64,000 nucleotides of DNA from a virus (UHGV-1963645), one strand, 5' to 3'. Shown: positions 37,912 to 38,721, numbered from the stretch's first letter. Numbers and translations: made by a program. Notes: generated from the sequence alone by a model not told the origin.

Positions 37912-38721
37912 ATGCAAGAAGAGAAACAACACTACCTCTACGTTCTGGTGCCGGAGAATGGAGATACTTTTAAAATCGGCATTTCATGTGGTCCATTGGC
38001 ACGGTTTAAAGGGCTACAAGTGAATCCCGATTTTGCGCTTTCACGGGGCTATCGTGGTACGCGTTTGGCAATAGTTAATCTTGAGCGGGCTTTACACGCA
38101 ACCTTTTTCCCCTGGAATGCGCCGTGGGAGAAAAGCGCCGGTGGCGGGCATACTGAATGGTTTACACGAGAGTGTCTTGATAAGGTTTTGGCTCATATCG
38201 AATATCTAAATGATATGTGGGGAGGGATTCTCGAGCGGATTAAGTCGAATGATTTACTTCAGCGTCCAGTAGATGCTGCTCGCTCTTTCGAAAAAGAACT
38301 GGATGTTACTTCTATCGTGACTTTCAAAGATGACGCAGGAATGAGGGATGTGGCTTATGTCTCCATATCTGGCTATGAACCTGACGCGATCCGCGCTCAA
38401 TGTGAATTGCTGAAAGCGATGTTTACGCTTCGGACTAAATATCCCTGGGAGACAGGGCGGGTGTGCTTCCCTATGGAAGAGTTAACCGCCACCATTGATT
38501 CCCAGCTTTACCACGATAATCCAGAGAAGTTTTTTAGCCTTTTAGCCGGTAATGGGCTTAACTGTGTGTCCGGACTGGGGCGAAGTAGAATCCAACATGC
38601 CTCGCTCTTCGGTCCCTTCTTTTACGATCGAAACGGGTGCTTTGAGGCTGAACTTCCGGCGCTTACGCGTGCTATAGATACTATCGATTTCGAACGATTA
38701 TTCGCAGCTCTTAACAAATAA
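37912..38721 (+). CDS. T5orf172 / GIY-YIG-like domain protein inserted between incA and parA
   Basis: N-terminus YLYVLVPENGDTFKIGIS...R...RLAIVNLERALHATF...HTEWF fits T5orf172 pattern; own terminator downstream. Confidence 0.55.
   Translation: MQEEKQHYLYVLVPENGDTFKIGISCGPLARFKGLQVNPDFALSRGYRGTRLAIVNLERALHATFFPWNAPWEKSAGGGHTEWFTRECLDKVLAHIEYLNDMWGGILERIKSNDLLQRPVDAARSFEKELDVTSIVTFKDDAGMRDVAYVSISGYEPDAIRAQCELLKAMFTLRTKYPWETGRVCFPMEELTATIDSQLYHDNPEKFFSLLAGNGLNCVSGLGRSRIQHASLFGPFFYDRNGCFEAELPALTRAIDTIDFERLFAALNK

Follow-up and report, generated by a model that had tools for sequence, protein, structure and literature searches.

T5orf172-type nucleases of the GIY-YIG superfamily have been described in phages in two forms that resemble the gene considered here. 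Odn (Gp88, ORF88 of ICP1 HQ641347; PMC8263062), an origin-directed nuclease of a Vibrio phage whose activity has been proven experimentally, is encoded by the attacking phage away from any replicon and combines a T5orf172 domain with a DNA-binding domain, which is 42% identical to PLE RepA and matches Pfam DUF6945. Free-standing homing endonuclease genes with a T5orf172 domain, known from ICP1 and further phages (Barth, Dunham and Seed 2023, PMC10448857), are located next to essential genes and at genetic-exchange boundaries, swap domains with Rep proteins, and carry CapR, DUF723, or DUF4397 zinc-finger domains in 87% of cases. P1-like phage-plasmids, which are common carriers of extended-spectrum beta-lactamase (ESBL) and other resistance genes, are typed by their IncY and p0111 replicons; a 'repA' (p0111) and an unknown gene, gp57, have been reported in place of the IncY repA (PMC9603915). 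The present analysis deals with this gene, an open reading frame (ORF) encoding 269 amino acids (ORF269), in a stretch of 64,000 nucleotides from a virus (UHGV-1963645), referred to as the window.

ORF269 as the last gene of a replicon cassette

According to the ORF listing of the window, ORF269 covers positions 37912-38721 on the plus strand, with a Rep_3-type initiator gene upstream (36735-37619) and parA and parB downstream (38890-41104). It is the last gene of a p0111-type cassette, the alternative to the IncY block of P1. In blastn comparisons, the window was homologous to P1 at 33002-36528 (98.2% identity) and at 38788-42000 (99.3%), and the only match between these flanks was a 59-nucleotide patch inside repA. 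Since the homology ends at 36528 and does not set in again until about 38790, the iteron-repA-iteron block has been replaced as a whole. The left junction was placed by base-level alignment inside oriR, beyond the DnaA box and the GATC-rich stretch but immediately ahead of the origin iterons. The right junction is located 70 bp after the ORF269 stop codon and 16 bp before the -35 box of the par promoter (Ppar). From 38791 on, the sequence is 100% identical to P1, including Ppar and its operator, which agrees with an original prediction for this locus that had described the parA promoter/operator region as apparently intact. The cassette is composed of origin iterons, the initiator gene (repA'), control iterons, ORF269, and a terminator, in this order. 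The cassette and the two parts of ORF269 have the following extents:

36529..38790, plus strand: p0111-type replicon cassette, replacing the incC-repA-incA block of P1 (2.26 kb here versus 1.5 kb in P1)
37912..38226, plus strand: N-terminal domain of ORF269, amino acids 1-105, T5orf172/GIY-YIG-superfamily nuclease domain (Pfam PF10544, phrog_681, alignment with Odn)
38227..38721, plus strand: C-terminal domain of ORF269, amino acids 106-269 plus stop codon, a sequence orphan with a predicted winged helix resembling WH1 of Rep initiators

In a megablast search, the region 36600-39000 was 98-99% identical to the phage-plasmids RCS47, phi456, SJ46, JL22, and others, whereas reference P1 matched from about 38790 onward only. 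The block from repA' through the iterons and the ORF to Ppar shared 98.9% identity with RCS47 over 2,401 bp. The PLSDB record closest to the cassette (NZ_CP134391.1) was 99.7% identical, and its ORF was 100% identical to ORF269. The window is therefore a member of the p0111-type replicons known from RCS47, SJ46, and JL22 (PMC9603915), with a cassette 98-99% identical and structurally not different. The p0111 publications leave the function of the gene unassigned and do not mention a Rep-like fold at its C-terminus. With the IncY replicon of P1, the locus shares the succession of five origin iterons, repA, downstream control iterons, and Ppar-parAB, as well as the par operon itself and, within oriR, the left portion with the DnaA box and the GATC-rich stretch. 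It differs from IncY in a RepA that is only 42% identical, in the iteron sequence, and in the ORF between the downstream iterons and Ppar. Reference P1 indeed has no intervening gene in its incA-par interval, as the original prediction had stated. The cargo insertion between incA and Ppar that it had deduced from this was not borne out, because the whole block is the cassette of the p0111/RCS47/SJ46 type. The original prediction had itself named conservation of the ORF as a core gene of reference P1-like genomes as a refuting finding, and this was observed for the p0111 lineage: all p0111-type P1-like genomes examined have the ORF in this place, namely 391 PLSDB records, 12 phage records with the references RCS47 and SJ46, and a divergent contig.

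Distribution and linkage of ORF269

ORF269 is a real and widespread gene with a correctly typed N-terminus, and it has already been annotated, in RefSeq as 'GIY-YIG nuclease family protein' and elsewhere as 'T5orf172 domain-containing protein' or gp57. In the literature searched, no characterised function of ORF269 was found. A tblastn search with the protein detected it in 401 PLSDB plasmids (400 of them at an identity of at least 90%) from Escherichia, Salmonella, and Shigella and in two Klebsiella records; it is also present in the 12 phage records mentioned above. It was found in 412 of 5,426 complete E. coli genomes (approximately 7.6%), at 414 plasmid and 7 chromosomal places. The chromosomal places (7 of 421) may represent P1-like elements that have integrated or formed cointegrates, or else joins made during assembly. 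The base composition of ORF269 (GC 0.473; GC at third codon positions, GC3, 0.444) gives no sign of recent foreign origin, because both values are ordinary for the window.

With the cassette as query, it was contiguous in the 391 PLSDB records mentioned above; approximately 147 additional records matched only the last 113 bp of the query and were IncY where typing was checked. No PLSDB record was seen in which an IncY repA is combined with ORF269. Presence/absence polymorphism between conserved flanks holds for the 2.26-kb cassette versus the IncY block, but not for ORF269 alone. Among 5.8 billion protein clusters, the ORF269 family was represented by one full-length cluster, by several clusters of truncated proteins, and by P0004 (44% identity) as its only divergent member, and scans of genome contigs and viral contigs returned near-identical copies only. 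P0004 is encoded on a 95.7-kb P1-like contig in the same slot, between a Rep3_C-type repA and parA. Its gene call includes a false N-terminal extension of 41 amino acids, which consists of translated iterons, and the real start aligns with that of ORF269 in the window.

A p0111 replicon core without ORF269 was found on the E. coli contig DABKFZ010000018.1 (GCA_013513435.1, 91 kb; L049) at 4700-6110. Its RepA is 85% identical and the 5 + 2 + 4 iteron layout is the same, and both ORF269 and an adjacent parAB are absent; the similarity of its backbone to the window is limited to faint matches in tail genes. Because L049 carries the p0111 replicon core in another backbone, this core also circulates outside P1-like elements, and because the replicon occurs there without ORF269, the gene is fixed in the P1-like cassette but outside the minimal replicon. 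Together with the premature stops in 7 of 45 copies and the relaxed selection described below, this comparison shows that ORF269 is dispensable; it is not needed for replication or partition.

The T5orf172 nuclease domain

A T5orf172 pattern had been noticed in the N-terminal 100 residues from the sequence alone, and profile searches and the alignment with Odn confirmed it. Pfam T5orf172 (PF10544) matched amino acids 8-85 with 24.8 bits (curated cut-off 20, E 3.2e-5), covering profile positions 2-87 of 101, and the domain is also carried by the 44%-identical orthologue P0004. The family phrog_681 ('endonuclease') matched amino acids 4-100 (1.7e-8), phrog_2876 (function unknown) matched the protein end to end, and the weak sub-threshold matches were to MUG113 and Tox-URI2, which are likewise members of the GIY-YIG/URI superfamily. 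No family matching ORF269 was present in NCBIfam, and the PDB sequence search with the N-terminal domain yielded nothing useful. When this domain alone was used for a homologue search, only truncated alleles of the ORF269 gene were returned. In the AlphaFold2 model described below, the N-terminal domain reached a predicted local distance difference test (pLDDT) score of only 42-54. Foldseek against BFVD with this low-pLDDT model gave several T5orf172 and GIY-YIG proteins, all of them weak (E approximately 0.02-0.1).

The T5orf172 domain of Odn was aligned with both ORF269 lineages. Invariant in ORF269 of the window, P0004, and Odn were Y8-L9-Y10, K21/G23/S25, R31, E58/H62, G78-G79, and E82/F84. 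They include the catalytic and structural residues conserved in the T5orf172 family (Y-x-Y strand, K-[IV]-G strand, Arg, Glu-x3-His helix, Glu-x-Phe). Residues E180/H184/E202 of Odn correspond to E58/H62/E82 of ORF269. The Odn residue E180, counted on the translated sequence as the glutamate of 'DTEQRIH', aligns with E58; an E180A mutant of Odn is catalytically inactive (PMC8263062). ORF269 is accordingly a putative nuclease of the T5orf172/GIY-YIG type with intact active-site residues, which would be expected to cleave DNA.

The C-terminal domain

The remaining 170 amino acids had been reported to lack a recognisable motif, and this description still stands at the level of sequence. The C-terminal domain had no Pfam match at E values up to 10, including Rep_3 and DUF6945, and none in NCBIfam or PADLOC. 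The PDB sequence search gave chance matches to Homer only, and a profile search of 1.84 billion representative proteins recovered as relatives only its own family and fragments of it. Homology to RepA at the sequence level was considered and rejected (BLASTP against the RepA of the window, E 17; hhalign against a 24-sequence RepA family alignment, probability 0.2%).

The structure of full-length ORF269 was predicted with AlphaFold2 from a 3-sequence alignment, and all fold matches depend on this one shallow model. It is poor in the N-terminal domain and reaches a pLDDT of 75-89 at amino acids 131-210. The modelled C-terminal domain consists of a beta-hairpin, a long helix, and a beta-alpha-alpha-alpha-beta-beta succession in the pattern of a winged helix. 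Rep WH1 domains were matched repeatedly by this model: in the Foldseek search of the PDB, one of them came first (probability 0.72), and 1hkq and many RepE54 entries ranked behind it. The search against BFVD returned a 'COG5527 protein involved in initiation of plasmid replication' (probability 0.97), while T5orf172 proteins matched the other half of the model. Taken singly, each of the matches to Rep WH1 is weak. A model of the C-terminal domain alone was worse (pLDDT 50) and was set aside. The structure prediction proposed earlier for this domain thus supplied winged-helix and Rep WH1-like matches, albeit from a shallow model of moderate confidence. The C-terminal part is likely, though unproven, to be a winged-helix DNA-binding domain that is closest to the WH1 of Rep proteins. 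The prediction of a Rep-like fold has slightly better than an even chance of being correct, and that of a generic winged helix is made with higher confidence.

Comparison with described T5orf172 nucleases

ORF269 and Odn are both stand-alone, two-domain proteins of approximately 230-270 amino acids, in which a T5orf172 domain has the same catalytic motif. The second domain of Odn is related to the iteron-binding domain of a Rep initiator, that of ORF269 may be so by its predicted fold, and both are involved with replicon cassettes (Rep and cognate iterons) that swap as modules. However, the domain order is reversed, the nuclease being N-terminal in ORF269. Furthermore, the resemblance of ORF269 to Rep is confined to a predicted fold of moderate confidence without sequence or profile similarity, and the gene lies inside a replicon cassette.

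To the T5orf172 homing endonuclease genes and the GIY-YIG endonucleases of the Seg/I-TevI type from T4, ORF269 is similar in joining a nuclease to a separate DNA-binding domain (predicted in ORF269), in its intergenic location by essential genes at the boundary of a block exchanged between near-identical genomes, and in its fast evolution and frequent degeneration. I-TevI has its catalytic domain N-terminal and its DNA-binding domain C-terminal, which is the order predicted for ORF269. In contrast to the homing endonuclease genes, ORF269 lacks zinc-finger DNA-binding domains of the CapR, DUF723, and DUF4397 types, is a constant part of its cassette that shows no presence/absence polymorphism as a single gene, and is located in the maintenance region of a plasmid-prophage rather than in a lytic phage genome. 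New with respect to the known T5orf172 nucleases are the N-terminal position of the nuclease, an orphan partner domain that may be Rep-like, and the residence in a replicon cassette.

Expression

The elements that bear on transcription and translation of ORF269 are:

37900..37905, plus strand: Shine-Dalgarno-like AGTGGT, 6 nt before the ATG, read from the sequence
38729..38749, plus strand: intrinsic terminator closing the cassette, GCCCC-TGAAC-GGGGC (a 5-bp all-GC stem and a 5-nt loop), then TTTTTTGT
38807..38835, plus strand: Ppar and ParA operator, -35 TGTACA, 17 nt, -10 TATTAT, identical to P1, found by promoter scan

AGTGGT may act as a ribosome-binding element, and the block from AGTGGT to ATATG is kept between the window and a divergent lineage (L003) that is 71% identical to it. 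The terminator, which had been noted before as ORF269's own, was supported by its folding energy (-11.9 kcal/mol, z = -2.3). The Ppar of the window maps onto the annotated Ppar of P1 (L002 6017-6045, by the offset from the P1 alignment) and was the sole plus-strand promoter match of a sigma-70 consensus scan of the region. Between repA and ORF269, manual inspection found no convincing promoter, and no terminator is present between the repA stop codon and ORF269. The original prediction had placed the start of the ORF directly against the incA iterons; the start is close to the array, which ends at 37881 and leaves 30 bp before the ATG, but these iterons are not of P1's incA type and have a different consensus. 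Because the interval behind repA contains neither a sigma-70 promoter nor a terminator, it is plausible that ORF269 expression is tied to RepA occupancy, a coupling that the original prediction had considered. Transcription of the gene would be weak and would stem chiefly from polymerases that start at the autoregulated repA promoter and read through the iteron array; it would end at the gene's own terminator, by which Ppar would be insulated.

Evolution of ORF269

Polymorphism and stop codons were surveyed in 45 close copies of the locus (main clade). The ratio of nonsynonymous to synonymous polymorphism (pN/pS) was 0.31 for ORF269, and 0.02, 0.00, 0.06, and 0.15 for repA, parA, parB, and upfA, respectively. 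Premature stop codons were detected in 7 of the 45 ORF269 copies and represent three independent changes, namely W68*, S112* (in five copies), and Q228* (in SJ46); truncated alleles form sizeable protein clusters (e.g., the 111-amino-acid P0128 with 151 members). These values indicate that purifying selection acts on ORF269 in a relaxed form and that the gene often becomes inactivated.

In the L003 lineage, whose nucleotide identity to the window is approximately 71%, the gene is present in the same slot. The proteins of the window and L003 are identical to 84% for RepA, 89% for ParA, 80% for gp23, 67% for ParB, and 44% for ORF269. Between the two P1-like lineages, the N-terminal domain of ORF269 is 65% and the C-terminal domain 32% identical. 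In this distant lineage, the reading frame has been kept together with all catalytic residues, and the majority of ORF269 copies overall are intact.

The repA' gene has 26 distinct alleles. For IncY, an identical RepA protein (WP_001076427.1) was found in six of the seven IncY plasmids (L055-L061). The IncY and p0111 cassettes seem to differ in age or diversity.

Recombination around the cassette

The flanks of P1 and of the seven IncY plasmids were compared with those of the 45 p0111 loci. For parA, parB, gene 23, upfA, and upfB-ppfA, the mean distance between the types equals that within the types. For most IncY loci, the closest sequence is that of a p0111 locus, with d = 0.0000 for parA in two cases. 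This indicates that both cassettes sit on freely mixing backbones, with ORF269 at the right-hand edge of the exchanged block. Such mixing of the flanks is compatible with a nuclease-assisted exchange of the cassette and likewise with recombination of the ordinary kind.

The slot upstream of the origin is also variable, because two of the IncY plasmids (L055, NZ_CP024832.1, and L061, NZ_MN510445.1) carry other genes there. A 'Gp49 family protein' gene and a gene for a hypothetical protein of 133 amino acids are located just left of oriR (locus positions 3527-4358), where P1 and the window have upfA. In a third IncY plasmid (L060, NZ_CP102677.1; locus positions 2711-3909), an IS91-family transposase lies between ppfA and the IncY repA, and upfA is lost.

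Possible roles of ORF269

We tentatively favour, at somewhat less than an even chance, the reading that ORF269 is a homing-endonuclease-like or Odn-like sequence-directed nuclease, which acts on DNA without the cassette and favours the linked replicon. In its favour are the nuclease domain with its retained catalytic residues, the position at the edge of a cassette that alternates with the IncY block between intermixed flanks, the absence of the gene from the replicon of L049, a fast and relaxed evolution with frequent truncation, as is typical of selfish or conflict genes, and its persistence in the slot of a distant lineage. ORF269 would then be a free-standing two-domain endonuclease, with the N-terminal 105 residues as the catalytic part and the fast-evolving C-terminal 165 residues as a winged-helix domain that may bind and target DNA. 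It could cut a site in cassette-free DNA of relatives or competitors, for which the IncY replicon block of sibling P1-like elements is the simplest candidate. After the cut, either the competitor would be lost or repair from the common flanks (oriR-left/upfA and Ppar/parA) would copy the whole cassette across. Free-standing homing endonucleases and Odn operate in this manner. A sequence-directed nuclease tied to the cassette would provide a mechanism for the exchange of replicon modules or for the exclusion of sibling phage-plasmids, and would extend the idea of origin-directed nucleases from the arms race between Vibrio phage and satellite to plasmid-plasmid competition in Enterobacteriaceae. 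It is less probable, and in our view unlikely, that the Rep-like domain recognises the IncY iterons or a nearby site, so that the T5orf172 domain cuts there and the rival is converted to p0111 or eliminated. The interest in such an iteron- or origin-directed cleavage of a rival replicon would be high: ORF269 would represent an origin-directed nuclease for plasmid-replicon competition, encoded inside the winning replicon, and would help to explain the alternation of two replicon types on the same P1 backbones. Several results speak against the favoured nuclease reading. Among the PLSDB cassette matches, none was seen with repA' but without ORF269; since ORF269 is never missing from the P1-like p0111 cassette, any 'homing' must act on the whole cassette. 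Classical homing endonuclease genes, by comparison, are sporadically present or absent on their own. The sigma-70 consensus scan detected no promoter between the repA stop codon and ORF269, and no family in PADLOC-DB v2 matched ORF269 at E values up to 1. The diversity of the cassette (synonymous polymorphism, pS, of 0.05 in repA') does not suggest a recent sweep, and the ordinary high recombination of P1 could produce the mixing of the flanks, too.

Alternatively, ORF269 might be a domesticated nuclease that serves as an accessory regulator of its own replicon. Its Rep-like domain would bind the iterons of the cassette or pair with RepA' by an interface of the WH1 type and tune initiation, handcuffing, or repA transcription, and its T5orf172 domain would be inactive or only bind DNA, as in CapR, a repressor of the PLE satellite that is derived from a homing endonuclease (PMC10448857). 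A start 30 bp from the iterons, probable co-transcription with repA, complete linkage to repA' in P1-like elements, and a predicted fold resembling WH1, the domain by which Rep proteins both bind iterons and dimerise, would all suit this role. We nevertheless consider a regulator improbable: L049 has the same replicon without the gene, premature stops are common, and the full retention of the catalytic residues is contrary to a loss of nuclease function. RepA' (84%) and the iterons are moreover conserved across the lineages, and a C-terminal domain conserved to only 32% is unexpected for their partner. A similarly low likelihood applies to a stand-alone defence or exclusion effector that is directed against unrelated incoming phages or plasmids and has no special link to the replicon. 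Defence genes are frequent on phage-plasmids, nucleases of the GIY-YIG/T5orf172 type are known from conflict systems, and ORF269 is fast-evolving and dispensable. However, the PADLOC search remained empty, only repA and parA are found on either side instead of an adjoining partner gene, and the family is confined to one P1-like slot among the 5.8 billion clusters, whereas defence genes usually change contexts. The relaxed pN/pS, the premature stops, and the many truncated alleles would also be expected of a decaying relic without present function that is kept by its linkage to repA' only. This is very unlikely, as the pN/pS is well below 1, approximately 84% of the copies are intact, and frame, start region, and all catalytic residues survive in a distant lineage at 44% identity. 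Hardly any likelihood is left for a recent cargo gene inserted between the incA iterons and the par promoter of an IncY replicon, although reference P1 has no gene there and ORF269 has its own terminator. The whole repA-iteron block is unlike P1 (RepA 42%, other iterons), neither an IncY replicon with ORF269 nor a p0111 P1-like element without it was seen, an orthologue occupies the same slot in the lineage of approximately 71% nucleotide identity, and GC and GC3 are ordinary. The 171-bp incA-Ppar spacer of P1 was also considered as a remnant of ORF269 and was rejected, because Smith-Waterman scores were no better than those of shuffled sequences (125 and 242 of 300 shuffles as good). Even if inert or merely regulatory, ORF269 would still be a useful marker separating the p0111 from the IncY cassette.

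Other features of the replicon region

The remaining features of the replicon and its right flank are:

36553..36657, plus strand: origin-side iterons (incC equivalent), five copies at 21-22 bp spacing, repeat family D1, same layout in L049
36735..37619, plus strand: repA', 294 amino acids, Rep_3-family initiator of the p0111 type
37617..37881, no strand assigned: downstream iteron array (incA equivalent), repeat families D1, D2, and D6, inverted pairs I1-I7
38890..41104, plus strand: parA-parB operon, outside the cassette and common to P1 (Pfam HTH_54 and AAA_31 in ParA; ParB)

RepA' matched Pfam Rep3_C (27.3 bits) and Rep3_N (22 bits) and is 99% identical to P0008, a 'RepB family plasmid replication initiator'. 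ParA and ParB are 99.7% and 100% identical to the P1 proteins, respectively. The iteron consensus of the cassette is TTGACTRTRCGCGA-like, unlike the annotated 19-mers of P1, and the p0111 iterons are of the TTGACTATACGCGA type. The downstream array comprises two to three direct copies at 37617-37683 and four inverted copies at 37738-37881, and L003 has retained its last iteron.

A further sequence that resembles an iteron (TGTTGACTATAAGCGAATCC; identity with the reference iteron, 70%) was found at 37337-37356 within the repA' coding sequence, and L049 has TTGACT matches at comparable internal repA positions. Between the direct and the inverted downstream iterons, an inverted repeat (37667-37696, TTGACGC...GCGTCAA) has 7-bp arms and a 16-nt spacer; the left arm and the start of the spacer are kept in L003, but not the right arm. 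On the minus strand over the inverted iterons (37773-37915), a sub-threshold match to the Rfam DUF2800 RNA was obtained (21.9 bits versus a gathering threshold of 60.2 bits, E 0.53), which is most likely due to chance. A plus-strand ORF of 101 amino acids (37718-38023) extends over the inverted iterons into the beginning of ORF269. The 'AHSQ' peptides that recur in it are translated iterons, and a 'hypothetical protein' is annotated at this position in some RefSeq records.

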